From Lingula anatina (Eukaryota > Animalia > Brachiopoda): a stretch of DNA of 64,000 nt. The notes under the pieces are model-generated. The model saw only the letters and a list, made by a program, of their open reading frames with translations, did not search any database and was not told where the DNA came from. The position numbers and the translations under genes were made by a program. Positions 20,971 to 58,595 of this stretch are shown here, piece after piece. The DNA lies in NCBI GenBank assembly GCA_051362555.1, contig CM120645.1, positions 9,238,001 through 9,302,000 of the forward strand. Direction: 5' to 3'. Positions within the stretch are counted from its first letter, which is position 1, and every line of letters begins with the position of its first letter.

Positions 20971-22142
20971 TGACAACGCCAGTGAACAGCTCTAAAATAA
21001 AGTCTCATCTTGGAGCTCGGCACCAAAGTGGAATGATTTAATATAGTGGCACCCCGGGATAAAGCAAGATATAAACAAATGGAATAGAACATCCTCATTA
21101 AAATGGTAGAGCATAGAAATCCGAGTTGTAAACCCTTTAAAAGTAAGGCAAAATAAAGATTGCATTCAAATACAAAGTCTTATTGTTTAACAGTATTCCT
21201 CGAGGTGGTTACTGGTACTTTCCATTTGCACATCAAACGGGCGCCATCCAGCATTCCTTGGCTCACGGTTGCTTCATACCAATTTTGGTATATAACAGGG
21301 AAGGCAACAGTTAGGTTATGTTCTGTGAGGTAGTTCGTAAAGAAGGGTCATCCATTAGAGGCAGAGAGTTACAAATAGGTTATGTTCTTTGAGATTGTTT
21401 TTAAGGGGTCGTCCATTTTATCATCGTTATCAGATGTCTGCAAACAGTAGGCGGTGGCCGGGGGGGTGGGGGCGGGGGGGGGGGGGGGGCGGGGGGAGGG
21501 GGGGGGGTTATGCCCTACGTGTATGTACCACACGTGTGTGCACAAAAACATTCAGATTTAATATATACCTGAATAGAACAAAGCATATTATTCTTTGTTT
21601 ATATACGGCTGTGGCTACGAATAGCGTGACCAAAAAAAGAATTCATTTGAAGATTTTATTAAAACCTTTTTCCTTTTGAAAATTATTCTGGCTTCCAAGG
21701 CACATTAATTATTTGTAGTAATTAGTATTAATATTAGTAATTATAAGTTTTTTTAATTTTATAACCTTGTTATCACTACTGAAGTGTTGTAAAGTTAATA
21801 TTTGTGCTCTAATGCCGAGGTTCCCAACTAATTATATTTGATAGTTAATGATGATTGAGGGGAGTGTAGCACTGATTGACATTAAGAATTTAATTTGGCG
21901 TTTCTTTAGTCATCAGTTCGTTTCGTTTCAGGGTGCCTATTAGATCCTATTAGGTCGAATAAGAAGTTCGTAAAAGGGAAAGCTTATAACGGTATTAAAC
22001 TATAAACATGTATATTGAATTGCAGCCAGTAACAAAATATGATGTTTTACACACGTCACAATACAGTTTCCTCTTGGTTTATTTCTTTGAATATGAATCA
22101 GTCTGTGTGACGTGTCCGTTTTTGACGTCAATAAAATTACAA

Positions 22143-25100
22143 TCACAGACTGACGTCACGACCAACTATTGTGAAAGACGCCCATTCGGTGCGAGGCCGA
22201 TCTTGCATGGTTTGCATGGCATTCCTGAGTGCGCGGCTGACTGTTTTTCTCGCGATAAGATCTTGATAAAAGCTGGTCATAAAGGCTTTGGTCGCCTGGT
22301 CCGGCAGTTGCCATAGTGCCACTACCACCGCCTTGGCTCCTATAAATACAATGTACATTTTCATGTTTTCTTAAAATTCAGTTTATCACTTCCCTAGGCC
22401 TAGAAAGGATTGTTCTATATAATTAGTATGCGAACAGGTTATGAGAATACTTACGCCAAGATTTTGTCTGTTTCTTAAAAACTATAAAAAAGTGATTAAA
22501 TAATAGTAATATGTACATAGTAAAAAAGTAAACGTTACTCTTTGAAAACTTAAATAAAGATGTTGTAGCGCACCTGCTACTAGAAATGCCCTGGACAGTC
22601 CTACCACGCCCTCGTTTTTTATCTCCCCACTTCCGCTGTGGCAGGCACTGAGAACAACAATTTTAGCTCGTAGTTTCATCTCCATCACCTCCTCTGCAGT
22701 CAAGTAGACATCCTTGCTGGATAAGGTCCCGTCTTCTGGCGACCCGTCGGGAGACAAAACCAAGGCTGTCTCGGACCAGCTGCCATGACAGGCCACGTGG
22801 ATGACGTCAGCACGAGGTAGTTCCTTTTTTACAACGCTAAGTCGTGCGCGGTCTCGGAGAAGAGGTTCCGTGCCTAACATTCCCGCGATAAGAATCGCTT
22901 CATCTTCGGCACCTGGTAACTTGCACGGTGTCCATTTTTGTCCGCAAATGTCGATTTCTGGGACAGAAGGATTACCCACAACTAGTGCCCGGGGCTGTGT
23001 TTTCTCTTCACTAGAAGATGAGTCTTCTCGAAGGGAGTGGGCTAAAATCTCCAACGATGGCATAACGGTGGCGCAGTAATCATTGATGAGGAGAGCTGGG
23101 AAAGGCACCAAATGCAGCTGAAGGTCGGGTATGATGACGATGTTGCTGTATCGACCGCCATCTTTTTTCAGCACATTTAACACGGGAACAAGGATGCCGT
23201 CATACCACCTTTGAAACACTTTCTTCAAACCATTGCCTTTGGACATAAGAGTGACGTCATGGGTGCTAGAAGAATCGAGCACGCTGTCCAAGTTATTTCG
23301 AGTACGACCTTTCCAACCGCCCATTCTCCAGTTTACACTAGGGATGGTCTGAATCCCAGCTGGGGATGGTGGAGAGAGTGACCGCAGCACGGACAGCTCA
23401 CTTAAGAGCCCCGTGACCTTAGTGTCCGGGCACGTGACGTCATAGTCAAGAAACGTGACGTCATCTTGCTGCGGTCGGATGACCCAGGCGAATAGTTTGT
23501 CGTTGATTAAGGCAAATACCACCACGGGTACGTTGGCAGTGTTTACAACCCGGTGGATTGCTTCTGGACCTCTTATATGATTTGTGATATCTGTCTTAGG
23601 ACGTCTGGCGTACATGATATCTAGCATTGACCGGGCTCTACATTGCTCAGCCACTGACAGAGCCTCGGTGTATTTTTGTTGCTGTATATAAATTTCCTGT
23701 TGACCAGTGAAGCACTCTATCGCCGACTCGAAGTATTCTATTTTGTTGTCATCGTCATTCAACTTTCTTTCTCGAACATGAGATGCCACTATAATTGCCT
23801 TTCCGTATTCTCCACTGGCTTTCTCTAGCAAACCTTGCTCCTTGTACAAGGAGCCCTGCAGGGTGAAGTAAATTTGTTCCAGTTCTGTACTTAAGTCATG
23901 AGCCATCTCCCGACATGCCGAAGCGTGTCTTTGAGCCTCAAGAAATCTCCCATGCTTCGTGCAAATCCTCACAATTCGTTGATGACATAAACACTCAATA
24001 AGCAGGTTTTTAGCCTCCCGGGCCAATTTAATCGTCCGTTTAAAATGCGAACTGGCGTTCTGAAGAAGAGCATATGTGTATTTTGTTTTGCATAAACGGT
24101 CCTTGTCTTTTATTTCATCAGCAATATCTATTGCGTCTTCGCAGCATTTTACAGCTTGCTGAAATAATAGAGGGTCACTTTCGGATTTAGAACGTGCCTC
24201 CTTAAGTGTAAAGTAAGCTATTTCCATTTTCACATCACCAAGACGAACGCGGTCTCCTAAGTTCTGCAAAACGCGTCGGTTTTGTTCAAGAAAACGCAGT
24301 GCCCTTTCATTGTTTCCAATCAGTATGTAAGTTTTGCTCATGCAAGTCAGACACAAACTCAGTATTTCTTGAGAATCGTAGTCATTTTCATCGAGGGATT
24401 CCGCGATTTTTAACGCTTGGGTGGCGTGATCAAAAGAAATCTGGAATGAGTCGACATAACGGCGATGATTGGCCATATAAATATGAGTTTTGGCTAGCAA
24501 GAACTTGTCCCCCAGGCCTTGGGCTATTTGCAGCGCTTTCTCCAGCACCTCCCAATCCGCATAGTTGTATGGATCTGAAACACGGACATCTTGCATTAAG
24601 AGCAAACACGTTGCAACAATGTCTTTCCTGTCAAGTTGTTCGGCCAAAGCGTTGGCTTTGTATATATAGTCAGACGCTCTCAAAAAGACCTTCCAATCGA
24701 TGCAAGAGCGACCCAACTGCATAAGCAAGCATGCTGCTTTTTCTTTCAATCCCCTTATCTCTGCTATGTTTAAAGCCCCTTTCAGGTAATCATGTTGGTT
24801 TTTGAAGTCGTATTTCACACTGTAACACCAGGCAATGGTCTCGAAAAGGTTCATTAAAGCGTCTGTCACATTATCATTTTTTAACAGAAGTTTCGCTTGT
24901 CGCTCCCCGCCTTCCCCCAGGCTATCCTTTGCTGTTATGTAAAAAGGCAATGCCTTTGCCTTCTCTCTGTGCTTTAGGGTTTCACTATAAACCACACCCA
25001 ATGCCTGGTATGCCAATGATTTTAAGATGACTTTGTCTGTCGGGTTGGAACTATCCAAGGTCATGCAGGTTTTGTTGTAAAAATTGTACAGTATTTTGTT

Positions 25101-25214
25101 AGATGTGGACTCCACGTCCTCCTTCATTGCCAATAAAGCGGCGGTGTACTCCCCTTGTTGAACGAGGGTCTCGATGTCTTGCAAATGTTGGTTTCCTTCA
25201 ATAATGCTGTCCAT
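22143..25214 (-). CDS. TPR-CHAT protein copy 1 (TTC28-like, caspase-fold CHAT domain). Exons 22574-25232 (ATG 25214) and 22143-22339
   Basis: TPR-like helices followed by AEQCRARSMLD, IVIIPDLQLHLVPFPAL, ALVVGNP, LPGAEDEA, IHVACHG, VVLSACHSG, GVVGLSRAFLVAG|AKAVVVALW, WASFTIVG. Confidence 0.93.
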
Positions 25215-25774
25215 CTCTATAGGAGAATGCAACTGCAAAATCAGAAAAAAAATACTGCAAAACATGGCATGTTGTCTTGTTGTTACTCATAACACAAAAC
25301 TAATTTTTAATCTCTGACATATCATACAGGGTAACCCATAACAGTTCTATTAAATCCTACAAAGAATTATCAAATTGTAAACAATTTGCTCGATATAAGT
25401 TTAATATATGCAATAGCATTCCCTAGACTTCCAGTTATCTTGGTTGCTTTAGATAAAAGTTATGGTTTATTAAGCTTCAAAGGTCCATCTATCAAACTTT
25501 AAAGGTTGGTCTGATTTTTAGTTTTAGAATACATATGTTTATAAGTTATAAGTTTCAGTTTCAGTTAACTTGGTTGCTTAACATAAAAGTGATATTCTTT
25601 GAATAATATCATGATTCAAATGGTCTCGCGGCATTGGTGACACAGATGCATACGTCGGGCAAAGTTGGCAATTACTCCCAACAGATTCTTCTGATTTTTG
25701 CTGTGGTTGCTACCCTTAGTTCATCAATCATTTGGGGCTGTTCTGGTGCACATTATCCTCGAGATACATGTATC

Positions 25775-25930
25775 CAGGGCCGTAGCCTCCGGGGGGCAGG
25801 GGGGCAGCTGCCCCCCCTGGGATTAAGAATTTTCCACAGTGGTAGGGGACACCCCCTCCCCTCTCGGGGGCTTCGCCCCCTCATGTCCGCTTTCTGCCCT
25901 CCGTGGCATTTTGCTCTGGCCACGACCCTG
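25775..25930. mobile_element. Short MITE (CAGGGCCGTAGCC type)
   Basis: CAGGGCCGTAGCC...GGCCACGACCCTG with GTATC repeated on both flanks. Confidence 0.65.
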
Positions 25931-26258
25931 GTATCCCAAACTAGGGGATTTCAAGCCCGGTAAATGTTGTGCCCCTGAACGTTGGGTGGGGTGGGGGTCA
26001 CCCTGTAATTTCGATGAAATGGTGATTTCGATGAAATGGAAAGAATCCCACGTTCTACTTAAGAAATGTCACTGATCACATTTCAGTACCACTACTAATA
26101 GGACGTGTCAGAGACAAGAAAGTTTCAGTTATAAGGCTATCAAAATTTAAGGGTGTGTCTGATGTCAAATTTTAAAATACATATATTTATATGTTATATG
26201 TTATAACAGTCGGGAATGCAAGAGAACTGTGGTCAAAGATCATTAGTCAATAGCTTTA

Positions 26259-26533
26259 CAGGGGCGGATCCAGGATTATTAGAAGGGGGATTGTGGATGC
26301 GAAGCCGACCCCCCCCCCCACACCTTCTTGGCGTGGGTTTTGGGCCCACTGAAAGGCCCGGTAAGATTTTGGTATTTTATTGGTCTATTTTGTACAGTTT
26401 AGAACTATGATTCAGCTAGTCAAATGTCTACTTTGAAGAGGAGGTTATTGGTGTTATTTTATTTTTAAGAAATCAAAAGGGGGGGGGAGGCGGTTGGGAC
26501 CTCCCTGACACCTCCCCCCTAAATCGGCCCCTG
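26259..26533 (+). mobile_element. MITE, CAGGGGCGGATCC family
   Basis: CAGGGGCGGAT...ATCGGCCCCTG; absent at the homologous position in repeat unit 2 (about 34440). Confidence 0.75.
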
Positions 26534-26639
26534 GCTAACAACAGGTGTCCAGCGAGGTCAAACTCACCCATTTCTACATTTTACCACAAGGGGCGGGGGG
26601 GGGGGGGGGGGGGCGGCTGGGGGGGGGGGGGATCTGACT

Positions 26640-28010
26640 CCAAACACAACAGTAACTGGCGGGTTATCGTATCCATCACAGATAATGTCTGGCTCAAGAA
26701 GCAGAAGACACATTGGCTGATAAACTATCATTTTATTTCTAAAGCTGCTTACAAAGGGACTTCTGATCTGCATGCAAATTGCTGTTGAAGTAACATAACT
26801 GATAAATATTTTCAACAAAAAAAAACAAAAAAAACAAGTGATTTGACGTTGGTGGGTTTCACAAATCGTAAAAAAGAAAAAAAAATAAGCACAATATTAA
26901 AGACTTAAACTTTAAGTCATATTCTGGTAGATAAGACCATCTAAGGGATAACATATAACCGCAAACGGCAGCTTTGAAAGCGTATTTGTTACATGCACAA
27001 GCAACATCCGTGCTATACTTTTAAGCAAAATTCATCCGAAAACAGTGTATTTACTTTTTAAGGCACTTACTTGTTTTAAAGAGGGAATTACTGGTAGATT
27101 ATTGCCTTCAGTCTCAGCTTGGATGTTCACGACCAGAGCTTCCACATTCACTTTTGCTGTGGCGGGGATTTTGCTGGTTTCTGTTCGCACTATTGTGTTT
27201 ATTTTGAGTCAAAGGCTAAAATAGAAATTGGAAATGTTATCAAGTTTCATGAGGTCACGATCAGCTTAAAAATCGATATCATCGGTAATACGTAACTTCC
27301 GGGGAAATTCGAAGAAGCATTACCTGTACATCTAGAAAACAACTGTTTGTCGGAAATAAGGTGAATTAGGAAATGAAATAGAAACAAAGAGACATATTAG
27401 AGAAAGTATTTGATTTCAGCAAATGAACTACACATCCATGTTTGGAGGTCTTCACATTTGTCGAAGATTTAAAGCACGAATAAGTCATGTTCTACAAGAG
27501 GGTCGATTTCACTTATAAACCCCCCCCCCCCCCCCCCCCAAGTGCAGCTACAGCATAAACAAACACCTACAGCGGTTGTACCTATCTTTTTTTTTCTAAT
27601 AGCACTCACCAATTTATATAGGCACTATAAGGGCCTACTATGTATACATGTATATTCAGAAAGGACATAGTTATAGGCAATTTAGCAAATATTGACTTAT
27701 GACGGCGCCACTGTCTAGTATTCAAGTGTTTTGTGCTTTCTGTGAAGTCCCTACCTGTTTCAAAGGGGATAAAATATATTAAGTTCAGTTGCATCTTTGC
27801 TGTTAACGGTCAGAGTTTCCACAAACACCTTTTCTTAGGTAAAGACTGGTGGTTTTTACACTATTCTGATTGAGTCAAAAGCTTAAAATAGATGTTGGGC
27901 ATTTTATTAGGTCATTTGACTTCATGATCATATGACAAGATTTCAATTGCGTCAAAAACTTTCAGGGAGGATCTAAAGAAGCTGTGATATTACATATATA
28001 AATGTACCTT
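26640..28010 (-). pseudogene. Decayed upstream exons of TPR-CHAT unit 1 (homologous blocks at about 34600-36380 and 42900-44305)
   Basis: Two paralogous ~250-bp exon-like blocks per unit, each ending near ..KQ|GT, conserved among units but with stops and frameshifts. Confidence 0.5.
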
Positions 28011-28344
28011 TAGAAAGCAGTTTTCTTTTCGAAAATGAGTACTTCAGTTAGATGTTCCAGAGACACAGCTGAACTCTTTAGTACACACTAAAGAAAAAGC
28101 CAATGTTCCTTGCATACATGTATGACGTATGTAGGTATTCAAATACTTAAAATACTTGTTATCTAAATAATATAACATATAAAAATATTAAAACGCAATT
28201 ATTTAGCCATGTTGTGCAAGAATTCTAATTTCACAAATAAAAACGCTTTCAATAAACAACATCTGTGTAAAACAAGCGAGACACATCCACCTGTTTTACC
28301 ATAGAGCTCTTATACATGTATACATTGCCAAAGATAAAACAAAT

Positions 28345-28378
<34 letters not shown>

Positions 28379-29323
28379 AAAGAAGAAGATACAATGAGAG
28401 AGAGATTAAAGAGATCACACCAGGTTTTTAATTAGAGGCAACACTACCAATCCATTACACGTATTACATATTTGAAATGTTTGGCGGCCCCCAGTAATCC
28501 GACATTAAAGAAAGAACTTTTTGTCGCAATAATTATTGTCGCGCAGACACCGGATATAGATAACTCAAACGAACAACTTAAACAATAAGTCACACAAGTT
28601 CCACTGACGCCCCGGCTTGTCTAAATTTCTCAAAATATTATATTAATGAATGTCTTAAAGCAAGCTTACCTTTTCCCGTGTTCTTTATTCTTGGTAAAAA
28701 CTAAAATAAAGCCCTTGAATTTGGAGAGATTTGGAGATTTTTTAGTGTGCGATAGCTGTCGTGGAAAATGTCCTCTTTTAATTGATAATCGTGCACTTTA
28801 TATTCAGCTTCTGTTTATTGACGCTCTATGGTAACGGTGTCAAAACATTTCTAATTTATGAGGGGAATTTTTCTGACGCAACATTTTCCAGCATTACGTT
28901 GGATAAATATTGACATAGTATTTGCTGTATACTTATCTTATCTTTTATACACTTTACCCTAACAGAAATCCAATTTCCGTTAAAGATATAAACCATCACT
29001 TTTAAGTAACCTGGACCTACTGTCTTTTGCTGCAGGCAATGAAATAATAGAAAGACTGGAGTGCGACCAAATTTAGTTGTAGGATCAATTCTTGTACATG
29101 TAGCATCAATGACAGTTGAACATTTAATGCTTGTGTCCATTGCAATTGGGGTTTCCTGCAAATTGAGGTGAAAACGGGGAAAAAAACAGATGATGTGTGA
29201 AGATAAAAAGTGTGTTTTGTAGAATTATTTGTATAAAGAAACTGGTATTACTTGCATTACAAGTGTTCTTTGAATTTTTTGATTACTCAGACTGGAGGTT
29301 GTAGAGACCATTTCTCCAAGCCC

Positions 29324-29354
<31 letters not shown>

Positions 29355-30002
29355 CTTATACAACCAAGACGCCCTGGCCATCCACCTGTTATGCCATAGA
29401 GCTGTTACTGTATATAACACACGTGTGTGCACAAAATATTTAGATATAATATATACCTGAATGAAACAATGCATATTATTCTTTTGTTGGCTGAAACAGT
29501 AAGACCAAAAAGGTTTTATTAAACGATTTTATTAAACAAGCACTTTTTCTTTTGAATTTCATTCTGACTTTGTTAAGCTCCCGAGGAACATTAATTCAAT
29601 TTTTTTAAATTTACAATCTTGTTGTCACTATTGCAGTGTTAAAAAGTTTGTGTTCTAAAGTCGTTGCCTCCGGCAAATTATATTTGACATTTAAAATAAT
29701 GGTGAGGAGTGTGTCGCACTGACTGACACTATACCCCTAAGATTTTAATTTGGGGTTTCAACGTCGAGTGCAGGGCATGTTTCTTTAGTCATCTGATAGT
29801 TTTAGGGTGTCCATTAATTTACCAAAATTGCGTCGAATAAAAAGTTCGTAAAAGGGAAATCTTATAAGAGTAGTAAAACTGTATTGAATACATTAGCGTC
29901 AGTAACAATATATGATCATGATGTTAAAATACACACGTCGGAATAAAGTTCCCTCTTGTCTCTGAGACCGGCCTTCTGTTTATGACGTCATTAAAATTAC
30001 AA

Positions 30003-32044
30003 TCACAGACTGACGTCACGACCAACTATTGTAAAAGACGCCCATTCGGTGCATGGCCGATCTTGCATGGTTTGCATGGCATTCCTGAGTGCGCGGCTGA
30101 CTGTTTTTCTCGCGATAAGATCTTGATAGAAGCTGGTCATAAAGGCTTTGGTCGCTTGGTCCGGCAGTTGCCATAGTGCCACTACCACCGCCTTGGCTCC
30201 TACAAATACAATGTACATTTACATGTTTTCTTAAGTTTCAGTTAATCAGTTCACAAGGTCAGAAAAGGGTTGTAAATATAATGTTATTTGAATAATCTGG
30301 GAACAGGATAAGAGAATGCTTACGTCTTAGTGCATTTTAACAATAAAAAACAAAAGTAGCCATTATTTTATCTGTTTTTTAGAAACATCAAATAATTGAT
30401 CAAATGATTTATTAACATAGTCAAAAAGTATATGTTACTCTCTGAAACCTAACTGGAGACTATAAAGCGCACCTGCTACTAGAAATGCCCTGGACAGTCC
30501 TACCACGCCCTCGTTTTTTATCTCCCCACTTCCGCTGTGGCAGGCACTGAGAACAACAATTTTAGCTCGTAGTTTCATCTCCATCACCTCCTCTGCAGTC
30601 AAGTAGACATCCTTGCTGGATAAGGTCCCGTCTTTTGGCGACCCGTCGGGAGACAAAACCAGGGCCGTCTCGGACCAGCTGCCATGACAGGCTACGTGGA
30701 TGACGTCAGCACGAGGTAGTTCCTGCTTGACAACGCTAAGTCGTGCGAGGTCTCGGAGAAGAGGTTCCGCGCCTAACATTTCCGCAATAAGAATCGCTTC
30801 ATCTTCGGCACCAGGTAACTTGCACGGTGTCCATTGTTGTCCGCAAATGTCGATTTCTGGGGCAGCAGGATTACCAACAACTAGTGCTCTGGACTGTGTG
30901 TTCTTTTCACTCGAAGATGAGTCTTCTCGAAGGGAGTGGGCAAAAATCTCCAAAGATGGCATAATGGTGGCGCAGAAATCATTGATGAGGAGAGCTGGGA
31001 AAGGCACCAAATGCAGCTGAAGGTCGGGTATGATGACGATATTGCTGTATCGATCGCCATCTTTTTTCAGCACACTTACCACGGGAGCAAGGATGACGTC
31101 ATACCACATTTGAAACACTTTCCTCAAACCATTGCCTTTGGACATAAGATTGACGTCATGGGTGCTAGAAGAATCGAGCACGCTGTCCAGGCTATTACGA
31201 GTATGACCTGACCAAGCACCCGTAAGCATACATCTCCAGTTTACACTTGGGATGGTCTGATTCCCAGCTGGGGATGGTGGAGAGAGTGACCGCAACACAG
31301 AGAGCTCACTTAAGAGCCCCGTGACGTCAGTGTCCGGGCACGTGATGGCATAGTCAAGAAACATAACGTCATCTTGCTGCGGTCGGATAACCCAGGCGAA
31401 TAGTTTGTCGTTGATTAAGGCAAATACAACTACGGGAATGTTGGCAGTATTAACAACCCAGTGGATTTCTTTTGGTCTTTTTATATGTTTTGGGATATCT
31501 GTCTTAGTACGTCTGGGGTACATGATATCTAGCATTGACTGGGCTCTACATTGCTCAGCCACTGACAGAGCCTCGGTGTATTTTTGTTGCTGTATATAAA
31601 TTTCCTGGAGACCAGTGAAGCACTCCATCACCGACTCGAAGTATTCTATTTTGTTGTCATCGTCATTCAACCGTCTTTCTCGAACATAAGATGCTATTGA
31701 AATTCCATGCACGTATGGTGTCTTGGCTTTCTGGAGAAGACCCTGCGCCTTGTACAAAGAGCCCTGCAGCGTGTAGCACATTTGCCGCAGTTCTATACAT
31801 GTCAGTTCAATAGCCAGTAAACCACACCCAATGCCTGGTTTGCTAAGGCTTTTAAGATGCCTTTTTCTGTCGGGTTGGCACTATCCAAGGCCATGCAGGT
31901 ATTTTTGTAAAAATTGTACAGTATTTTGTTAGATGTGGACTCCACGTCCTCCTTCATTGCCAGTAAAGCGGCGGTGTACTCCCCTTGTTGAACGAGGGTC
32001 TCGATGTCTTGCAAATGTTGGTTTTCTTCAATAATGCGCTCCAT
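30003..32044 (-). pseudogene. TPR-CHAT copy 2 with a ~1.2-kb frameshifting deletion of the TPR region; the CHAT ORF (ATG 31781, exons 30473-31781 and 30003-30199) remains open
   Basis: The junction at 31818/31819 joins sequence equivalent to copy 3 positions 40719 and 41933 (1213 bp missing). His and Cys motifs retained. Confidence 0.85.
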
Positions 32045-32125
32045 CTCTATACGAGGTTGCAACTGTGAAAATAAAAAAGGAAATAACATTGTCTTGAAAG
32101 AGAAAACTAATTTTTAATCTCTTAA

Positions 32126-32471
32126 AGGGATAACAACTGTTCGTAAGTTATTCATATTTCAAAATAAATGCATTGTAAACATCTCATAGGAATATAATAA
32201 ATTCCATTTTACCACAAAAAAAAAAAAAAACGGTGGTCAACAAAAGTATTCTGGAATTTATACTTGCCACCACACCATGTGACCTCCCTAGATGGCTATG
32301 CTCTGTAATAATCTCTAAAGAGAATATTACAAAAAAAAAACTTTTTAGAAAAAAACCAAGGACTAACTTTGAATGTGGGAATGGATTCATTAACCACTGG
32401 TAAGTGTAAGAAAATAGTCCTTTAACCTAGGAAAACCAATTTTTTGGCCAAAATGAACAGTTGTTATCCCT
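32126..32471. mobile_element. Kolobok-like MITE (TTAA TSD); homologous copy at 42244-42578
   Basis: TTAA-AGGGATAACAACTGTTC ... GAACAGTTGTTATCCCT-TTAA; absent from unit 1. Confidence 0.8.
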
Positions 32472-32583
32472 TTAAATATCATACAGTGTAACCCCACAAA
32501 ATAAACAAAACCCATAACAATTGGATTAAATCCTACAAATGTTTGTCAAATTATAAGCAATTTGCTTGACTAAGTTTAATATA

Positions 32584-35337: not shown

Positions 35338-35990
35338 TTAAAGCACAATAATCATGTTGTACAAAAAGGCCAATTTCACTTACAAACGCTTCAACAAACA
35401 TGCAACTATAGTATAAACATATACAGGTAGCTACAGCGCTTGCACTTATCTTTTTCTAATACATCTCTACAATTTACATAGGCCCTGTAGGCAAGATAGG
35501 GGCCTATTATATACATTCTGAAAGGACGCAGTTGTAGGCATGGGCGTCCGCAGAAAATTTTCCAGGGAGGAGGGGGTCAAAGTCATTGAAGGGGGAGATA
35601 ATGATTGGCTGGGTACCCGCAATAAAAATGCAGTCCCAAAATTCTAGTGTGGGTGTGGGGGGTTAAAGCACAAAAATCATGTTGTACAAAACGGCCAATT
35701 TCACAATAATTCAACAAACATGCAACTACAGTATAAACATAAAGCTTCTGTACAGCGCTTGCACTTATCTTTTTCTAATACAACTCTACAATTTACATAG
35801 GGCCTGTAGGCAATATAGGGGCCTATCATATACGTTCTGAAAGGACGCAGTTGTTGGCATGGGCGTCCGCAGAAAATTTTCCAGGGGGGGGGGGGGGGGG
35901 TTCAAAGTCGTTGAAGGGGGAAATAATGATTGGCTGGGTACCCACAATAAAAATGCAGTCCCAAAATTCTAGGGGATGGGGGTTGAGCCC
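35338..35990. repeat. ~325-bp tandem duplication including the left part of a MITE
   Basis: TTAAAGCACAA(T/A)AATCATGTTGTACAAAA starts at 35338 and 35663. Confidence 0.85.
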
Positions 35991-36013
35991 CCCCCCCCCT
36001 GCGGACGCCCTTG
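35858..36013. mobile_element. MITE with 7-bp TSD and CATGG/CAAGG termini (P-like); truncated copy starts at 35539
   Basis: CATGGGCGTCCGCAG...CTGCGGACGCCCTTG with TSD TTGTTGG/TTGTCGG; empty site AGTTGTAGGTGAATT in unit 3 (about 43931). Confidence 0.8.
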
Positions 36014-38899: not shown

Positions 38900-41800
38900 T
38901 CACAGACTGACGTCACGACCAACTATTGTGAAAGACGCCCATTCGGTGCGAGGCCGATCTTGCATGGTTTGCATGGCATTCCTGAGTGCGCGGCTGACTG
39001 TGTTTCTCGCGATAAGATCTTGATAAAAGCTGGTCATAAAGGCTTTGGTCGCTTGGTCCGGCAGTTGCCATAGTGCCACTACCACCGCCTTGGCTCCTAC
39101 AAATACAATGTACATTTTTATGTTTTCTTAAAATTCAGTTTATCACTTCCCTAGGCCAGAAAAGGGTTGTTAATATAATGTTATATAATTAATCTGGGAG
39201 CAGGATTAGAGAATGCTTGCGTCCAAGTGCATTTTAACAATAAAAAGCAAAAGTCGCCAATATTTTATCTGTTTTTTTTTTTTTAATCTAAAAATTAACT
39301 AAATGATATATTGATATAGTATAAAAAGTATATGTTACTCTTTGAAAACCTAACTGGAGACTAAAAAGCGCACCTGCTACTAGAAATGCCCTGGACAGTC
39401 CTACCACGCCCTCGTTTCTGATCTGCCCACTTCCGCTGTGGCAGGCACTGAGAACAACAATTTTAGCTCGAAGTTTCATCTCCATCACCTCCTCTGCAGT
39501 CAAGTAGACATCCTTGCTGGATAAGGTCTCGTCTTCTGGCGACCTGTCGGGAGACAAAACCAGGGCTGTCTCGGACCAGCTGCCATGACAGGCCATGTGG
39601 ATGACGTCAGCACGAGGTAGTTCCTTCTTGACAACGCTAAGTCGTGCGCGGTCTCGGAGAAGAGGTTCCGTGCCTAACATTTCCGCGATAAGAATCGCTT
39701 CATCTTCGGCACCTGGTAACTTGCACGGTGTCCATTTTTGTCCGCAAATGTCGATTTCTGGGACTGCAGGATTACCCACAACTAGTGCTCTGGGCTGTGT
39801 GTTCTCTTCACTCGAAGATGAATCTTCTCGAAGGGAGTGGGCTAAAATCTCCAACGATGGCATAACGGTGGCGCAGTAATCATTGATGAGGAGAGCTGGG
39901 AAAGGCACCAAATGCAGCTGAAGGTCGGGTATGATGACGATGTTGCTGTATCGATCGCCATCTTTTTTCAGCATATTTAACACGGAAAAAAGGATGACGT
40001 CATACCACCTTTGAAACACTTTCCTCAAATCATTGCCTTTGGACGTTAAAGTGGCGTCATGGGTGCTAGAAGAATCAAGCGCGCTGTCCAAGTTATTTCG
40101 AGTACGACCTTTCCAACCGCCCATATACATATTTCTCCAGTTTACACTAGGGATGGTCTGATCCCCAGCTGGGGATGGGGGAGAGAGTGACCGCAGCACG
40201 GAGAGCTCACTTAAGAGCCCCGTGACGTCAGTGTCCGGGCACGTGACGGCATAGTCAAGAAACGTAACGTCATCTTGCTGCGGTCGGATGACCCAGGCGA
40301 ATAGTTTGTCGTTGATTAAGGCAAATACAACTACGGGCATGTTGGCAGTATTGACAACCCAGTGGATTTCTTTTGGTCTTTTTATATGTTTTGGGATATC
40401 TGCCTTGGGACGTCTGGCGTACACGATATCTAGCATTGACCGGGCTCGACATTGCTCAGCCACTGACAGAGCCTCGGTGTATTTTTGTTGCTGTATATAA
40501 ATTTCCTGGAGAGCAGTGAAGCACTCCATCACCGACTCGAAGTATTCTATTTTGTTGTCATCGTCATTCAACCGTCTTTCTCGAACATAAGATGCTATTG
40601 ATATTCCATGCATGTATGGTGTCCTGGCTTTCTGGAGCAAACCCTGCGCCTTGTACAAAGAGCCCTGCAGCGTGTAGCACATTTGCTGCAGTTCTATACT
40701 TGTCAGCTCAATAGCCAGTTGCAGAGATGCCGAAGCGTGTTCTTCCGCCTTATCGAAACTCCGTTGTTTTATGAAAATCTTCGCCAAATGTTGATGACAT
40801 AAACACTCAATGGACATATTTTCAACGTCTTGGGCCAATTCAATTGTCCATTTAAAATGCGAAATGGCGCCCGTTGTAGATCCATATCGCTCCAGAAGAG
40901 CAGCATATTTGTATTTTGTTTTGCATAAACGATCCTTGTCTTTTATTTTATCAGCAATATCTATTGCGTGTTTAAAGCATTTTACAGTTACCTGAAATAA
41001 TGAGTCAATTTCTGATTCAGAACTAGCCTTCGCAAGTGTTAAGTAAGATATTTCCATTTCCACATCACTAAGACGAATGCGGTCTCCCAAGTTCTGCAAG
41101 ACGCGTCGGTTTTGTTCAAGAAAACGCAGTGCTCTTTCAGTGTTTCCAACCAGTATACAAGTTTTGCTCATGCACGTCAGACACAAACTCAATATTTCTT
41201 GAGAATCGTAGTCGTTTTCATCGAGGGATTCCGCGATTTTTAACGCTAGGCTGGCGTGATCAATAGAATCCTGATATGAGCCGAACTGACGGCGATCATT
41301 GGAGATACAAACATGGGCACTGGCTAGCAACAGCTTGCCCCCTAGGTCTTGGGCTATTTGCAGCGCTTTCTCTAGCTCCTCCTCATCCGAACAGTCGTCT
41401 CTTTTTGAAAGATGGACATCTTGTTTTAACAGCAAACACGCTGCAACAATGTCTTTCCTGTCAAGTTCTTCGGCCATATCTTCGGCTTGGGATATATAGT
41501 CATACGCTTCCCCAAAGATTCTCAGATTGAGGCAAGAGCGACCCAACTGCATCAGCAAGCATGCCGCTTTATCTTTCAAACCCCGCTCTTTTGCTACGAT
41601 CCAAGCCACTCTCAGGTGAACGTATTGCTTTTCAAAGTCGTATTTCACATTGTAACACCAGGCAATGGTCTCGTAAAGGTTCAGTAAAGCGTCTACCGCA
41701 TTTTCATTATCGGCTGTAAGTTCTTTTGGTCGAACCCCGACTTCCACTAGGCTTTTCTTCGCTGTTTTATACAAACGCAATATCTTGTCAATTTTATTCA

Positions 41801-42158
41801 AAGCGTCTGCCAAGTTTTGATCATTGGATATAAGTCCCCTTTGTCCCAGCCATGCTTCCAACAGGCTATCCTTCGCTGTTATGTAAAAATGTAATGCCTT
41901 TGCTTTCTCTCTATGCTTTAGGGTCTCACTATAAACCACACCCAATGCCTGGTATGCCAAGCATTTTAAGATGCCTTTGTCTGTCGAGTTGGCATCATCC
42001 AAGGCCATGCAGGTATTTTTGTAAAAGTTGTACAGTATTTTGTTAGATGAAGACTCCACGTCCTCCTTCATTGCCAGTAAAGCGGCGGTGTACTCCCCTT
42101 GTTGAACGAGGGTCTCGATGTCTTGCAAATGTTGGTTTTCTTCAATGATGCTAGCCAT
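38900..42158 (-). CDS. TPR-CHAT protein copy 3 (full length). Exons 39374-42167 (ATG 42158) and 38900-39096
   Basis: Same motifs as copy 1 (IHMACHG, VVLSACHSG); long open exon plus the conserved last exon. Confidence 0.93.
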
Positions 42159-45074
42159 GGGTTGCAACTGTGAAAATAAAAAAAAAGGAAATAACATTGT
42201 CTTGTAGTTACTCATAACAGAAAACTAATTTTTAATCTCTTAAAGGGATAAGTTATTTATATTTCACAATAAAAGCATTGTAATCATAGGAATACATCAT
42301 AGGAATACAATAAATTCCATTTTACCACCAAAAAACGGTGGTCAACGAAATTATTCTGGAATTTATACTTGCCATCACACCACGTGACCTCCCTAGATGG
42401 CTATGCTCTGTTATAATTTCTTAAAAGAATATAACAAAAAAAAACTTTTTAGAAAAATAGCAAGGACTAACTTTGAATGTGGGAATGGATTTGTTAACTA
42501 ACCATTGGTAAGTATGGAAAAATTGTCCTTTACCCTAGGAAAACCCATTTTTGGCCAAAATGAACAGTTGTTATCCCTTTAAATATCATACAGGGTGACT
42601 CCACAAAATAAACAGAGCCCATGGCCCATAACAATTTTATTAAATCCTACAAAGGTTAGTCAAATTATAAGTAATTTGCCCGAATAAGTTTAATATACAG
42701 GTCGGTAGCCAGCAATTTCAAAAGGGGGGGGGGGGTTCTTTTTCTGAAAAGTGGACCTTTTTCCATAAAAACGTCATATACCTAGATCAAATGCTACCGA
42801 GAGTGGAACTTTTCTCCACAAAAGGGGCATTATACATGTACAGTACCATAGGGAGGTGGGGGTGGGGGGTGGGGGGCTAGGGGGGGGGAGCATCTTACTT
42901 ATGAGCACAACAGGGGTGTGAAACTAACAGGTTATCGTATCCACCACACATTGACTGATAAACTTTCAGATTATTTCTCAAGCTACTGACAAGGGGACTA
43001 CCGAACTTCGGATCTGCATGCAAATTGCTGTTAAGTAGCACAGCTGATGTTTTTTTTTTTTTTTTCATTAAAAATGCAAGAAAACCCATAATTTCACGTT
43101 GAAGGGTTTTACAAATCGTAAATAATAAGCACAGTATCAAAGACTTAAACTTTAAATTAACTCTTATTATGGTACATAACCATCTAAGGGATCAAACAAA
43201 AACGTACACGGCAGCTCTAAAAGCGTATTTGTTTCATGTACAAGCGACACTCGTGCTATACTTTTAAGTAAAAATCACTTAAAATGTGTATATACTTATT
43301 TAAAGGCTCTTACCTGTTTTAAAAAGGAAATTAGATTATTGCCTTCAGTCTCAGCTTGGATGTTCACGGCAAGAGCTTACGCATTCACTTTTGCTTTGGC
43401 AGGGATTTTTTTAGTTTCTGTACGTACTATTGTGTTTATTTTGCGTCAAAGGCTAAAACAGAAATTGGGAATTTTGTCAAGTTTTTTTAGATCAAGATCA
43501 GCTTTCAATATCGATATCATGAGTAATCCGTAACTTCCGGGTAAAATCCGAAGAAGCATTACCTCTAGAAAACACTCGTTTGCCGGAAATAAGGTGTAAT
43601 ATGAAATGATGGAGAAACAAAATGCACACGTAATAGAAAGTTAATGATTTCCGCAAATGAACTACATGTACTTTTAGGAGGCCTTGACATTATCGTTGGA
43701 GATTTAAAGCACACAAATAAACCATGTTCTACAAGAAGGTCAATTTCACTTATAAACGCGCCACTACCCCCCCCCCCCCCCCAAAAAAAAAAATATATAT
43801 ATATATATATATAAAGGCAGCTACAGCACAAACATACAGCTACATCGCTTGTACTTATACTTTTCCAATACAGCTCACCAATTTACATAGGCACTATAGG
43901 GGCCTATTATATATTTTCTGAAAGGCACACAGTTGTAGGTGAATTTACCAAATATTGATCTGTGACGCGCGAATGCCATTTAATATTGTCTAGTATTCTT
44001 GTGTTTTGTGCTTTCTATGAACTCCCTACCTGTTGTAAAGGGGATCAAAATATATACTTCAGTCGCAGCTTTGATGTTAACGGTCAGAGATTCCACATAC
44101 ACTTTTTTCTTTGCCAAAGACTGGTGCACGTGGTTTCTACACTATACTCTGTTAAGCGTGATTGAGCCAAATGCTAAAAATAGATGTTGGGCATTTTATT
44201 AGGTCACTTGACGTCATGATCATATGATCAGATGTCGATATCGTCAATCCATATAATAGTTTTCAGGGAGGATCTGAAGAAGCTGTGATTCATTCACATT
44301 TACCTTTGGAAAGCAGTGTTTTTTTTCGATGATAATTAAGATACATGTAGTGCAGCGTATCATGATGATAAGACGATTCAGAGACAATATATCGCATTCA
44401 GTTAATATTCTATAAGAAAAAAATCAATGTCTCCTCCTAATAGGTGAGCTAGGCCTTCACATGCTGAGTATCAGGCCTAGTCATCATTATTTAAGCAAGT
44501 TTGCCATGTTGAATGCGAAGGTTGATTTCACTGATAATAAGCTTTAAATAAATTTATGATATTAATTTCAGCACGAAGCAGCACTTATGTTTCATTATTT
44601 GTGGTCCAATTTATCCACACGTGGCACAATATTTTACTGTAGTAGAATGTGGACGTTTAATAGGGTAGACAAATATACATGTTGGGTTGCAAATATTGAT
44701 CTGTGACAGCAGGTGCCTGCATGATGACACAGTTATGCTCACTTCTTTTAGGTTAAGGGGTGGGGGGGATAATATACATGTAGAAACGCATACACTAGCC
44801 TACCGATACAGACCCGATATGCAGATGTATAGCACTGTATGCATATAGGCCTATATACAACTTGTATAGTTTGGAGTAGTATTTTGGCTGCTGGTCCCAC
44901 ATGTACAGTGTTAAAAGAGTAGATGTACAGTGCATGCATAGATCTAGGCCCTATACCATGTAGCTAGCCTGAATTGCGTGGGCATGTTTGAACCGTCATG
45001 AGACACGACGGTGTAGCCTCGTTATGAGAGTGGGGGTAGGGGTTTGGAAATAGCGAAGTTGTTTTACTTTCTAA

Positions 45075-46150: not shown

Positions 46151-49100
46151 TTAAAGAAACATCTGAATGACCGAATCTGACAAACTTTCTGCAGCTTCAT
46201 CAAATGTAGAATAGTCACTGGATTCGGCAATCAATTTGAATTCAGCCCTCTTCAGTGTTTTGGGTCTTTGGAATTCCTTGAACAATACCAAAACTTTGGG
46301 TGAGACTACCAGCCCGTCCAACACAAAAGACTCTAAGGCATCGTCCTTAGGTAGAGCTGCAAGCAGTGCTTTTGCTGAAGCTTCATGAAATAACACGCTC
46401 TCTTTTTGTAAAAAATGGACAGAGATCTCTCTCAGAACCCGATTTTGTTTTATTATGTCTGTCAAATCAGACACAAAATCTGTGGTTCCACCACCGTATA
46501 TTACATCCCATCCAGAAAACTCCAGGGAAACTAAAGTTCTATTGCGCTGGGCAACAGCCTCAAGGGCATGGCAAATGCCATTTTCTTCTCTGTTTTTTGA
46601 GGTGACATCTGGTGAACCATAAATTATGCCTCGACTTCGACCAAGGAAAGCTATCGATAATATTTGGATGCTTTTACTGTTTTTGATAAGGTCGCTTACT
46701 GCTAAAAAGAGCGTTTTAATCCTATTTCTTAAACCTGGAATGTTTTCCCAGCCAATCATTTCAAACCTGTTCAGGCGATGAGACTCACTGATAGCTGCAA
46801 GAGTTTCCACAATAGCATTCGTGATGCTATCGGGGATTTCTTCATCACTTTCTCCGTTTTTCCCTCCAAACCCCACAACAAGTGACTGTAGATCCCTGTT
46901 TTGTTCAACAAGTACCTTTATGGCCGAAAGCACGGGCGTAGCATTATGACCAAAACCCTCAATGCCATAGAGCTCAACTTGTCGAAAGAGAGGTGGGTGC
47001 TGTAATGGCAGCAGTAAAAAAGGCACATGAGATTCATCTAAACATTGCCTTCCTAAATCGAGTTTAAAACCCAACAGATGACTTTCTGGCGATAGCAATA
47101 AAGCTGAAAGCTCTTGCCAAGAACCCTCAGTCACAGTTATGTCTTTGTCAAAATTCATGCTAAGATAATCTAAAGTTTCCTTGGTTTTGCATAACCGGCA
47201 GAACTCTCTGAGATCTACCGTACAGTTTCTAAAGGTGACATCCAAACTCTTAATTGCCTCTGTCTCCAACATAAACGAACACAGCTCTGGCATAAAATCC
47301 CTACGGACTCGTTCCATCTTATAAGGCCATGGCAAACATGAACAGAAAAGCTTTTTCTCTTCTGTGTCTTCTCCGTTGAAACTGATGGAAAGCGTCTCAA
47401 TTTTCTTTGCATTCTTTAAACATTCTAAGGTGACCTGCTTAAAATGACCCTTTAATTCAAGCGCCCTCACTGTGGACTGATTGTTCGAGAGGGTGTTAAA
47501 CACGGGGCCTAAAATGCAATAGTCGAAAGGTGGAGTGCTGCACTCGTCACCCATTCCAACCGTATCGTCAAGTCTAGACAAACTTAGCTTTTGCGGCAAG
47601 ACCATCAACAACCTTGGCACCTGATAACCCAAGCTCAAGTGTTTCCACGGACCTGCAGCCTGTAATAATTTGTCTCACTCTTTTAAAGTAAGACTTTTGT
47701 ACACAGGCATAAGACAAGGTATCACAAACACCATCTGATTGGCCACAGATTACCTCAATTATTTTTGGAACCTGCTGAGGGTGCTTATCTTGATACTCAA
47801 GGACTTTTCGGAGGCCTTGCTCGAACTCGTAGCTCATATTTATGGGCAAAGGCAACACCTCCCAAAACGCACAAGAAAAACAATCCAGAAAGTTACATCT
47901 GTTGCATTCATAAAAACATTCAAAAATAGTCTGTAAGATACCAGCTTTCACCATGTACTGAAACAACCTATCTACATCGACAGTGTGCAAGAAATTCAGC
48001 CACTCAACGCTTTTCTTCTTCCCCGTTAATTTCTCATAAACAGATTTGGCCAATTTTACCCTGATAATTCGAATATACTTTTCACTCTCGATTGGCGCAT
48101 CTATGGTCTGCACTGCCTGAGCAAGTGCATTGAACAATGGCTGGCTCTTTTCACCCATGAACCCTGCCACAAACCTGCTAAGAAGCCTGTTGGAGGGACC
48201 ACTGGCACATCGAACAAATAAAGTGTCATTTGTGGCGGACTGTAATGACACATACCATGCACAGAGTGCTTCTTGGAAAGTGCGATGCAAAAACGAGCAA
48301 GTTGTATATTCAAACGTTTTTAAATAGCTTCTTCTCTTCTTCATGAACCCTAGTTCAATAAAATGAACATTGTGGTAACCCCTACGGATGTCTGTCACTG
48401 AAAATGACATCGTGTCATCATTACAGAGACCGTCATAAGCTAATTTCCCAAGTTTCCGTAAATGAGGTAACACTTGTTCTGGGATGTTTTCATCAGTCAT
48501 TTCTATTTTGTTACGTTCACAATATCTTTTAATAATGTAAACAATTATTTCCCAATACAATCTGGTGATTGTATTAGGAAGAGACCTTTGATGAACTGAC
48601 CATACCAAGCAAAGCAAAACTAAATTCAAAGGGTTGCAGGATATTTCAGACACATTTCGTTGTTCTGACAATTCTTGCAGCAATTTTTGCCCAGATTTTC
48701 GGTCGTCTTGGAAGTGTTTTAAGACATAGGCATCTCTGCTGGTTTCTGAAAACCCGTTGATGGTATAAAATGCGTCACACGCCTTAAGATCTTCAATACA
48801 TTCATACGGCCGAGATGTAATCATGACGGTGCTTTTTCGCAATAATTTGGAATGCACAATTTTGTCGACGTCAAAATAGAGCGTGTCGGACTTTTTGTGT
48901 TCGGGGAGTTCATCATAAGCATCAAAAATAAACAAAACATGTTCTTGATGCTTTGCTAGCTCTTCCAACACTTCCTTATAATCGATGGTTTGCGTGTAGC
49001 CCAGTTGCATCAACAGGTCTTCTGGAAGTAACTGATCAAAACATGTCTCGACAAAAGAATTTCTCATATTTTTGCATTCTAACAAGAACACTAGTTCAAA

Positions 49101-50998
49101 CTGGGGGTATAGACCTCGCGCCCAATCATATGCAATTTTGTGACAATACAAGGATTTCCCTACACCGGGTTCCCCCTCCACTCTTATACGACAAGGCTGC
49201 CTCCCAGAGCTTTCTTTAGCAAACATATTACTAGTTACAGTGAGATCTTCTTCTCGCTCTCCAGAAGGACCGGAACTATATTTTCTCTTGATTTCTAAAT
49301 CTGTATACACTTCATAAAACTGAAACTTGAACTCATCCAGCCAAGGAAGAGGTTGAATATCTGTAAAAAGATCCAGGTAGAGATCCTTCAGGATTTCGGC
49401 TACTTTGGCCCACCACAGAGGGCGACTGGTATGGACAGGGGGACAGGTGCTCGTGTGTGCACTGGGTTCATAGGGTTGGCCATTGATGGGTGATTTTGAT
49501 GCATCTGTAGGTCCTGAAAATTAACAAGACATTTTCAACCCGCATATAAAAAAAATAAAACTGCTATCCAACAGAAAAAAGCATAATAGCTAGGTAATAA
49601 ATCTGAACTATTTTACGTTTAGGCCAATATAAACACACTAAACCTGCATCTTAATTTTTACGTATACTTAAAAAATTTCTGTGTGTATCAATGTTGTATT
49701 GTCGACCTTCTTTTCACACCAGCCCACCAGTCAACAAGGTGTGTTAGATTTCCAGTTTCCTTTTGTTTTATGATATGATACTGAAGATAAGATATTAAGG
49801 TCGGTTTTTAGGCTACAATAGACTTGCTGTGCAAGGGGCCGCATGATACGTCTGACATAAGATGAAAAGGTAGACACATTGAAAAAGATGCTAATCTTGA
49901 AACACGGGTTCATTTGTATAATGACATGACTGTTGATAAAATTAAAAGCCGGGAATGCAATTTAAGCTCTAACATATATATTGCGCATATGCTATCTGCT
50001 TGATAGTTAATTTTTAGTTACGCAATTGAACCCTGCTGTTGTTTAAAATTCAGTTCGATCTTTAAATTAACCCTAGCCTGAGCACGAAATATCAGTTTTT
50101 CAATAAATGTGTTTCTTCTTGATGTGCTTACTTTGAAATGAAAATAATTTTATATCTCTTTTAAATTTCCAGGTGTAGTAAATACATTAGTAAATTCTGT
50201 AAATGTATATCTACAACATTACGGAATTATGAAAAAACGTAGAATAATAATAATCATTTTACGGCAAAAGGTTGGTGTAAAAAAATAAAGTGTTTTACCT
50301 TTCACTACCACCAGTATTTCCTCCACTCTAGTCGCGAGCTCTAAGATTTGTTCTGATTGTTTTTGGACCGTCATTGCCAGATTCTCTCCCTGCTGGTGGA
50401 GCTTCTCCAACATGATCTTGGCTTCCTGGTCTTGCTTGTACCAATCTCGGATCACATTAAGATATGTCTCCTCATTTTCAGTCAATGGATCTGTCTCTAG
50501 AGAGAGGATCTTGCTTTGCCAGTGCGGGCCGCCGAGGCGAAGTATAGCCTGCTGTATTACTGGAAAGTAAGTGTTGAACGAAGTCTCCGGAAGTTTTGAG
50601 CTCTCCACGTGCGCGTACAAATGGTTCCTGCACCACTTCAGTCTTGCCAAGTCGTCAGCTACTGCTGTGTCAAATGCCTTGGGGAGCTGGTCCCAGCCGT
50701 TGGCTGGCGGAGAAAGATTGCACACATTTCTCAACAAAATAAAAAGAAGAGTAATGTTAAAGTCCTTTGACTGTCCAAATGTATTTGTGGCCGGGTACAG
50801 TTTTGTCCACTGGGGCTTTGTTAATACACGCTTCGTATGAAGTCTCAACAAATGGCATTTATATTTGAAGAGTATCACTGGGAGGGTCACTGGAGGGTGA
50901 ATTTTATCAAAAACCTCTCTTACTGCCTCGGTCCCGCAGTCCAGCAATAGTCTACACATCAGAATAAAATGCCTTCTTTCTTCGCCACATGAATCCAT
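46151..50998 (-). CDS. NLR-like protein: DZIP3-like HEPN + coiled coil + NACHT + LRR-like C-terminus. Exons 50299-50998 and 46151-49513, with a +1 frameshift near 47574-47638
   Basis: HEPN: CRLLLDCGT..QWTKLYP..FNITLLFILLRN..PPANGW..DLARLKWCRNHLYAH. NACHT: PLPW, VYTDL, Walker A GEPGVGKS, Walker B LFIFDAYDEL, ITSRP, NPLNL, FLHRTFQE. Leu-rich repetitive C-terminus. Phase-1 GT-AG intron. Confidence 0.88.
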
Positions 50999-52889
50999 GA
51001 TACGTACGTCACTCTCTCCCTGAAAAGATTTGCAACGTTATGGCATAAATGCGTTTAGGGTCAATTAACAGAAGATTTTATAAAAATATTGGAATTCTCT
51101 ATGCATATGGCAATTCGAGTCAATAATCTATGCTAGTGCATATATGCGCATGCATAAATGAAAGTGCAAGTGCACGTCCTCTCTGACAGGCTGTTGGGCA
51201 CAGTTCAAGCGCTCTCAACATTTTACTGAATATCACTTAAAATTTGTTGAGGGCAACTGTTTAGAGCCTTTTAATATACCATCCATTTGATCTTGTAGGG
51301 CCAAATGAGAATAATTTAAAGCACCAAAACCGGTTTTAGAACGAGCGAGAAGAATTTATAGGGCTTAGTTTTGGTGGTAGAAAACATAAAATTGGACAAA
51401 AGTTTAAACACTTAACCTGAGTTTCATTCCCTTTATTACAAATATGTTGATTTATACTATTTCAAGGCTACAAATTTAGGTCTATTTTAAAATTTCCTCA
51501 ACAAATTAAGTAAGGCCTACTTTCAGCCGCGATTAGAAAAATCAGAGTTGCTTACATCAACATTTCTAAACGTCCCAATAAAGAGAAAACGTGGCAGGCA
51601 ACATACAAAAACGGACAAGAAAAAGTTTAACAGAGGTCACGACGGCAGTTGATAGATAGGCCTACATTATGTAGAAAGAAGTGGAGAGGTTTGGTCCATG
51701 GAGTGTGCCGACAATCTTTAATATACGGAGGATCGGGATGATGATGATGATAGATATTATTTTGATGACTTTTAGATGCAGAAAACATAAATTTGGACTC
51801 ACCTCTCAAGTTTATTTTTTAAGGTTCGACGCTTTCTTGGCACTGGGGATATGGTAACTTAACAGAACTATGTGACCAATTTTTTAACTTCGTAGGTAGC
51901 CTACTTATTCATAAATTGACGAGGGACCAACTTGCCCCGGGGTCCAACTTGCCCGGTCTCCCCAACATGTAGGCTACTAACTACCTGTAAGGGGACTCCA
52001 TCTAGGCCTATTAATTAGTTGCTAGCCTAGCTTCAAAGTTTTGTCAAAATATTCTAGGCCCTACATGTTCAGTGTAGCCTATTAAATTTCAAATAACTTA
52101 CGTTTCATGTTCGCGTAAAGCCTCTTCTTTCATAAAGACAACAATATACACAGTTGCTACCCCTGGTAGCTACAGTAGCTACATATGAACGTGTAGGCTA
52201 CGTGTAGGCCCCTACATGTATAGGCCCTATAGCCTATTCTGAAGATGCTCGGCCTACTGGATACCCAGCTCTGCTTCTCTGCTTTTTGTAGTAGGCCTAG
52301 GCCTCCCAGACGGACGGTTGTAGATCAGCATAAAGCTGATAAGATTTGACTCATCTCCTCAGCCGTTTTCTGTTTTATTTGTTTACTTATTTACTTTTTA
52401 CTGTAAAAAGTAGCACTAACAGGCCTACGCCCCCGAAGGTAGCCTACGCATAAAATTATCAAATAAAATACAGCATGCAACGTACAAGGACACAGCCTAA
52501 CGGAATTTTACTTTTTTTTCGAGTACATAAACGTTATCGTACATGTATATCTGTTTGAACAAACGGAACAAACACTCGTGTCCTATTTTCTACTACGTAC
52601 ACTGTACATGTAGTCCTACATGTAGGCCTATTACTGGTACGCTTACTTGGCTACATGTAGGCCTACATGCCTACATGTACAGTACCCAAAAGGGTGCCTA
52701 CCTGTATTCAAACTGAGATCTTACTAAATATATTGGTCTACTTGTACCGGTACAAGACATACAGAGAAAGGGGGATAATATGTTCAATATTTTACTAACT
52801 CACAGACCTTGAATTAAAAAAGTTGGTTTGTCAAAACGGGTCAGATATTCATGATTAATACGTGTAATGCGAACTGAGCAGGGAGCACA

Positions 52890-55599: not shown

Positions 55600-55654
<55 letters not shown>

Positions 55655-56657: not shown

Positions 56658-56692
<35 letters not shown>

Positions 56693-58551: not shown

Positions 58552-58595
<44 letters not shown>

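Follow-up and report, generated by a model that had tools for sequence, protein, structure and literature searches.

This analysis concerns a stretch of 64,000 nucleotides from the brachiopod Lingula anatina (GenBank assembly GCA_051362555.1, contig CM120645.1, positions 9,238,001 to 9,302,000; hereafter the window), the minus strand of which carries four co-oriented genes, one for a HEPN-NACHT-LRR receptor (NLR) and three for TPR-CHAT paralogs. With a probability of about 0.68, we read them as two independent immune-type sensor-effector genes, which probably stand together because the region is haplotype-variable and evolves by birth and death. The NLR and the TPR-CHATs are new members of known families, and the inflammasome that a sequence-only reading of the window had proposed is unsupported so far.

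In an inflammasome, the protease is recruited by the N-terminal death-fold domain of the receptor. The NLR in the window has, judging from its sequence, a predicted effector (an RNase) at its N-terminus in place of an adaptor of the CARD, Death or PYD kind. On the coding exons, Pfam gave no match to CARD, PYD or Death at E 0.01 and showed no bridging domain between the NLR and the proteases. With a predicted RNase at the N-terminus of the NLR and variable TPRs in the proteases themselves, each is on paper a complete sensor-effector. TPR, CHAT and NACHT rank among the most enriched domains in Acropora's non-syntenic regions (PMC12314368), and the pearl oyster has more than 50 HEPN-NACHT genes, enriched in regions of this kind (PMC9646362). 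Since both families are reported from haplotype-variable regions, the reports being of enrichment and not of adjacency, no functional link is needed for their co-location to be expected.

The DNA of the window is rich in AT and contains introns. Its large open reading frames (ORFs) match L. anatina proteins, and the splice sites of the genes at the locus are canonical. HEPN_DZIP3 (PF18738, E 4e-43, at 50.2-51.0 kb), NACHT (PF05729, E 1e-25, at 47.6-49.5 kb) and three CHAT domains (E about 1e-36) passed the Pfam cut-offs, and catalytic motifs are present in all four genes, the broken ones included. The sequence-only reading had described four co-oriented genes with these domains. Its domains and strand agree with Pfam and with the folds, but only two of the four genes (TPR-CHAT copies 1 and 3) are intact, because the NLR and TPR-CHAT copy 2 are both frameshifted.

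The receptor gene and its frameshifted allele

The NLR coding exon at 50299..51019 (minus strand, ATG at 50998), assigned by Pfam and by a splice joint in sequencing run X4, encodes the DZIP3-type HEPN and the helical linker after it. The Rx5H motif of this HEPN is intact (R124-H130) and is shared by seven of eight other HEPN-NLR matches, which are coral relatives. The last exon (46151..49513, minus strand; Pfam and structure matches) encodes the NACHT, helical domains and ribonuclease-inhibitor (RI)-type LRRs, and the frameshift lies inside it. The NACHT matches NLRP3 and NLRC4, with both Walker A and Walker B intact. Pfam found no LRR match in the 480 residues C-terminal to the NACHT; this part is predicted to form an RI-type beta-alpha LRR solenoid (model confidence, pLDDT, 70; 19-row alignment), and NLRC4, NLRP3 and RI were among the best Foldseek matches of the model (E 1e-8 to 1e-6). 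The gene had been thought to end at 51020. It runs further, to a 5' non-coding exon the 3' part of which lies at 52102..52130 (minus strand), where the loose end of an X4 contig at 51019 matches, with a GT donor and an AG acceptor.

Pieces of the NLR are 85-94% identical to XP_013408804 (1,369 residues), in which the LRRs are in frame. They are out of frame in the window allele, which has a 47-nt deletion at 47594..47595 (minus strand), a size derived from the protein alignment to XP_013408804 and not from the DNA of an intact allele. The spliced NLR is 4,063 nt long and its first stop falls at codon 880 (genomic 47574-47576), giving a predicted product of 879 residues, a HEPN-NACHT protein without most of the LRRs. 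Because this stop falls in the last exon, as judged from the exon map, junction-dependent decay is not expected.

The deletion was present in the contigs of all three deep DNA runs, X1, X2 and X3. X1 and X2 belong to one study and may be the source of the window; X3 belongs to another. Record 4 of X1 and record 1 of X2 span the site with no gaps. Record 12 of X3 has only 29 gap letters across 6.7 kb, and an insertion of 47 letters therefore does not fit. Assembly error was ruled out as the cause of the frameshift, since the contigs of these runs, X3 being from a separate study, span the site and likewise lack the 47 letters. An intron or a programmed frameshift was ruled out by inspection; 16 codons are gone and no slippery heptamer was seen. 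The window most likely carries a loss-of-function allele of the NLR that is both young and common. In X4, contigs identical to the window stand beside a diverged NLR copy that has extra letters at the deletion site. No diverged copy was found in X2 at 82% likeness, a setting at which X4 shows one, contigs being unable to prove absence. Four of the eight differences between X2 and the window lie within a 20-bp stretch of the HEPN exon (50444-50463) and may represent a short conversion tract.

Low-level spliced transcription of the NLR was observed. Run X4, labelled 'DNA?', acts as RNA: it skips the intron at 49512-50298 with near-zero intron depth, and it joins the exon near 52,102. In run X18, depth was low, about 1x on the NLR exons and about 2-7x on TPR-CHAT copy 3 (paralogs and alleles pooled), and run X19 gave 42 reads on the NLR. 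Reads were absent from X15 on both gene types and from X12 on the NLR, which counts as no test. The samples are coded, so these data have no bearing on induction.

The TPR-CHAT array

The three TPR-CHAT genes lie in a tandem array at 21520..44329, which self-BLAST resolved into three units of 6.6-7.8 kb (about 21520-28242, 28807-36618 and 37717-44329). About 1.8 kb separate the end of the array from the NLR stop codon, and self-BLAST found no NLR sequence in its units. The NLR was left out when the unit duplicated.

All three genes are on the minus strand; copies 1 and 2 were judged from the window sequence, and read mapping covered the NLR and copy 3. Copy 1 (22143..25214; coding exons 25214-22574 and 22339-22143) is intact, encodes 945 residues and carries the His810 and Cys858 dyad motifs. 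Copy 3 (38900..42158; coding exons 42158-39374 and 39096-38900) is intact as well, with 993 residues and the dyad motifs present. In both, a TPR array is followed by one CHAT domain, the coding region of which holds one conserved intron. Copy 2 (30003..32044) is broken by a 1,213-nt internal deletion at 31817/31818, which takes out most TPRs and shifts the frame, with a stop at codon 81; its CHAT half is open and keeps both dyad motifs. The gap in copy 2 was ruled out as an intron; it is a genomic deletion with a 1-bp overlap at the junction.

TPR_12 was above the Pfam cut-off in copy 3 only, and a profile of 105 relatives matches TPR structures along the N-terminal half. H810 and C858 are invariant in all 105 rows of the alignment, and the CHAT His and Cys agree in 150 of 152 aligned CHAT regions. 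The dyad was assigned from sequence alignment; a single-sequence TPR-CHAT model had low confidence (pLDDT 43). The closest match of copy 1 is XP_023931919 (99.8% identity), and over exon 1 it is 89% identical to XP_013408801; copy 3 is 93% identical to XP_013408802 over exon 1. A further RefSeq model, XP_013390537, has a body that shares 90-91% identity with copy 2 and with copy 3 alike, and its extra N-terminal exons match upstream exons of the copy 2 unit (36056-34942). This pattern suggests a third arrangement of the array or a relative of copy 2 without the deletion.

Between copies 1 and 3, the two TPR blocks are 60-65% identical, with ratios of nonsynonymous to synonymous substitution (dN/dS) of 1.02 and 0.87, while the CHAT is 96% identical, with a ratio of 0.30 (Nei-Gojobori, one pair). 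The synonymous rate (dS) is also lower in CHAT, 0.06 versus 0.24, which hints at gene conversion. A dN/dS near 1 fits diversifying and relaxed selection alike. Divergence of the TPRs beside a conserved CHAT, together with the deeply diverged haplotypes, supports an immune-like mode of evolution.

At 50% identity, the close TPR-CHAT subfamily made up just one cluster in a set of 1.84 billion cluster representatives. The next matches are 30-40% identical and include cnidarian TTC28-like proteins and prokaryotic CHATs; CHAT proteins of solved structure show remote similarity (8rot, E 3e-4). In a quick tree of 82 of 153 rows, with no canonical TTC28 among them and subject to a long-branch warning, Lingula fell near cnidarian rows and outside a mainly prokaryotic group of 70 rows, which holds the named or JGI prokaryotic rows. 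Four top non-Lingula matches (P0149, P0150, P0151 and P0152) have two CHAT domains each, and P0152 also has an AAA ATPase fusion.

In copy 3, the untranslated exons are separated from the large exon by a very high-copy repeat (42240-42760), with a bin depth of about 48,000 in two DNA runs. This repeat draws many partly fitting RNA reads, and related pieces are found near 25.3, 32.5 and 34.2 kb.

Diverged haplotypes and the alternative readings

The cluster occurs in RefSeq in two versions, the first with TPR-CHAT models on a 697,313-bp scaffold and the second on a 334,660-bp scaffold. The latter carries two TPR-CHATs and an intact NLR as consecutive models XP_013408801-804, the order being taken from the accession numbers. 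The second version is 7-15% diverged in residues across both gene types. Of 32 codons compared, which were taken from 40 of the 321 variant rows, 31 encode the XP_013408804 residue in the second copy in X4. The divergence of this copy climbs from 8/398 nt in the HEPN to 49/361 nt in the LRRs, as would be expected of a variable sensor. The two versions are probably alleles (haplotypes) and not fixed paralogs. Three observations bear on this: the NLR contig depth in X3 is 44, against 62-78 in the HROB region, X2 shows no diverged NLR copy at 82% likeness, and none of the 42 NLR reads of X19 is at least 99% window-like. Segmental duplication is a possible alternative, because contigs cannot prove absence. 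The tandem copies and the two broken genes support the birth-and-death signature that had been proposed for the locus.

The step from linkage to an inflammasome is not supported. The receptor carries a HEPN in place of CARD, Death or PYD, the TPR-CHATs have a variable sensor of their own, the array was copied alone, and the NLR is truncated on a haplotype that keeps two intact proteases. If the two genes act independently, ligand binding by the LRRs of an intact NLR allele would free the NACHT, which would then oligomerise with ATP and bring the HEPN domains together, and their paired Rx5H sites would cut RNA. In the TPR-CHATs, the variable TPRs would bind ligand and open the His-Cys site, which would cleave a substrate encoded elsewhere.

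Several points weigh against independence. The adjacency of the NLR and the TPR-CHATs is tight and co-oriented, it recurs in the diverged second version, and reads of both occur in the same run, X18. The genome of L. anatina is 400-450 Mb in size. With uniform placement of the 31-40 NACHT domains of this species (PMC8662601), the chance that a given locus has a NACHT gene at 50 kb or less is only about 1% (p about 0.7-1%). This value is post hoc, with no correction for the large number of windows and domain pairs, and the placement of immune genes is not uniform. With one 50%-identity cluster, the TPR-CHAT subfamily is not widely scattered. The deletion in the NLR appears to be recent, since 480 codons downstream of it are still open, and the intact proteases therefore say little on independence. 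The lack of a diverged NLR in X2 rests on contigs, with the limit given above, and the immune role of both gene types is predicted only.

The alternative that survives best, and which we regard as unlikely, is that the TPR-CHATs are non-immune offshoots of TTC28 with a role in cell division, under relaxed selection, and that the NLR is a chance, decaying neighbor. The TTC28-like label of these proteins in RefSeq and the cell-cycle role proposed for the Montipora expansion (PMC9145168) favor it, while the CHAT is under purifying selection, with its dyad intact, as the TPRs diverge. The dN/dS near 1 suits relaxation as well as diversifying selection, two of the four genes are broken, and the missing reads of X15 (and of X12 on the NLR) agree with it without being a test; the deep haplotype divergence, however, is typical of immune loci. 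Canonical TTC28 is about 2,500 residues long, and the L. anatina TPR-CHATs are far shorter (about 950-990 residues).

Next comes a linked module, which we consider improbable. In it, an NLR oligomer would recruit and activate the TPR-CHATs, or the TPR-CHATs would sense ligand and cleave the NLR to turn on its HEPN, and the diverged haplotypes would be co-adapted sets. The same gene set does occur on the diverged scaffold, with the 7-15% divergence spanning both gene types, but both versions come from one species and therefore count as one event. Gene-neighborhood inference is weak in animals. Co-orientation, a spacing of about 2 kb and intact CHAT dyads suit such a module; the missing adaptor domain of the NLR (Pfam), its absence from the duplicated unit, and the occurrence of its truncated allele in at least two studies do not. 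Precedent exists in fungi, where CHAT proteases are clustered with death effectors and protease-NACHT fusions occur (PMC8851545), and in a partner complex that allosterically activates a TPR-CHAT (PMC9729208). The scanned ORFs, which did not include all small exons, showed no recognisable gene for gasdermin or another substrate. By analogy with such systems, the locus might even be a defence island of co-adapted haplotypes, in which hypervariable TPR-CHATs and the HEPN-NLR activate each other as a CARD-free protease/RNase death switch and the common LRR-less allele segregates as an off or always-on state; this we think quite doubtful.

Least probable is that the frameshifted NLR allele is not null and that its 879-residue product is active or regulatory (sensor-independent or dominant-negative) and kept by selection: the stop in the last exon, the intact HEPN and Walker motifs, the presence in at least two studies and the similar depths of window-identical and diverged contigs in X4 (14.0 vs 14.3 and 8.4 vs 9.2) are compatible with this, but none of the listed window-type X4 contigs spans the deletion, no such protein was found among the 752-2,396-residue candidates of a word-limited search, and a young null allele accounts for the same data.

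Both gene types have been described before, the HEPN-NLRs from nine invertebrate taxa (PMC8662601). The DZIP3/hRUL138-like HEPN-NACHT-LRR NLRs of bivalves, corals and others (PMC9646362, PMC8662601) resemble the Lingula NLR in architecture, in the Rx4-6H motif and in haplotype variability, and those of Stylophora and Oculina are about 40% identical to it in the HEPN region. The Lingula NLR differs in having few close relatives (one cluster in a word-limited search) and a common allele without most LRRs; in the accessible parts of these two papers, TPR-CHAT neighbors are not mentioned. The coral TTC28-like expansions (PMC12314368, PMC9145168) share with Lingula the N-terminal TPRs and one CHAT, tandem duplication, variable TPRs and copy differences between haplotypes. 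The Lingula array, by contrast, is small (three copies), belongs to a lophotrochozoan and stands apart on a long branch of the quick tree; most non-anthozoan animals have one or two TPR-CHAT copies (PMC12314368).

The TPR plus His-Cys protease plan is likewise shared with Csx29, the caspase-like TPR-CHAT of type III-E CRISPR, which is turned on by its partner complex (Craspase; PMC9729208), and with the fungal HET-Q2-like gasdermin activators, the genes of which are clustered with the gasdermin substrate (PMC8851545). No CRISPR effector, Csx30 or gasdermin was recognised at the Lingula locus, where the proposed partner is the NLR. With the NLRC4/NAIP-caspase-1 inflammasome, the locus shares the NACHT and RI-type LRR fold and has a clan CD-type protease nearby, but receptor and protease lack CARD, PYD and Death and the protease is of the CHAT type. 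L. anatina is reported to have separate homologues of CARD-NLRC, caspase-1 and GSDME (PMC11508797).

No animal NLR-TPR-CHAT gene pair was found in the titles and abstract openings of the literature searched, most subscription papers lying outside its scope. If a module were true, an animal NLR would be wired to a non-caspase clan CD protease, and the large, unexplained TPR-CHAT expansions of invertebrates would gain a pathway. Read in the likelier way, the locus is still a compact test case, combining a single-locus TPR-CHAT array with intact dyads, intact and naturally truncated HEPN-NLR alleles and diverged haplotypes in one species. It allows a direct assay of two predictions, RNase activity of animal HEPN-NLRs and protease activity of animal TPR-CHATs.

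Flanking genes and other elements

The flanks had been assigned to HROB, SLC22 and a surface-protein gene, and these calls fared unequally. HROB stands: its exons (54439..63748, plus strand) lie head-to-head with the NLR, and Pfam HROB was found on two of them (59634-59825 and 62591-63745). About 2.3 kb (52100-54500) separate the first mapped NLR exon from the first large exon of the HROB region on the opposite strand, and a shared promoter is possible. An HROB intron contains a tandem array with a 161-bp period (56915-57860), with about four copies and degenerate ones.

The SLC22 call is weak, one of five exon fragments matching Sugar_tr, below the cut-off. Remnants that look like transposons lie at 7225-7683 and 10931-11437; they are a PHD-finger fragment and, flanked by 112-bp inverted repeats within this SLC22-like gene, an endonuclease-like ORF. 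The surface-protein gene is reduced to an SMB/DUF8401-like lead (0.87). It is a Cys-rich gene at 17803-21179, possibly broken or multi-exon, in which a signal-peptide-like exon is duplicated (20045-20314 and 20719-20969, 87% alike).

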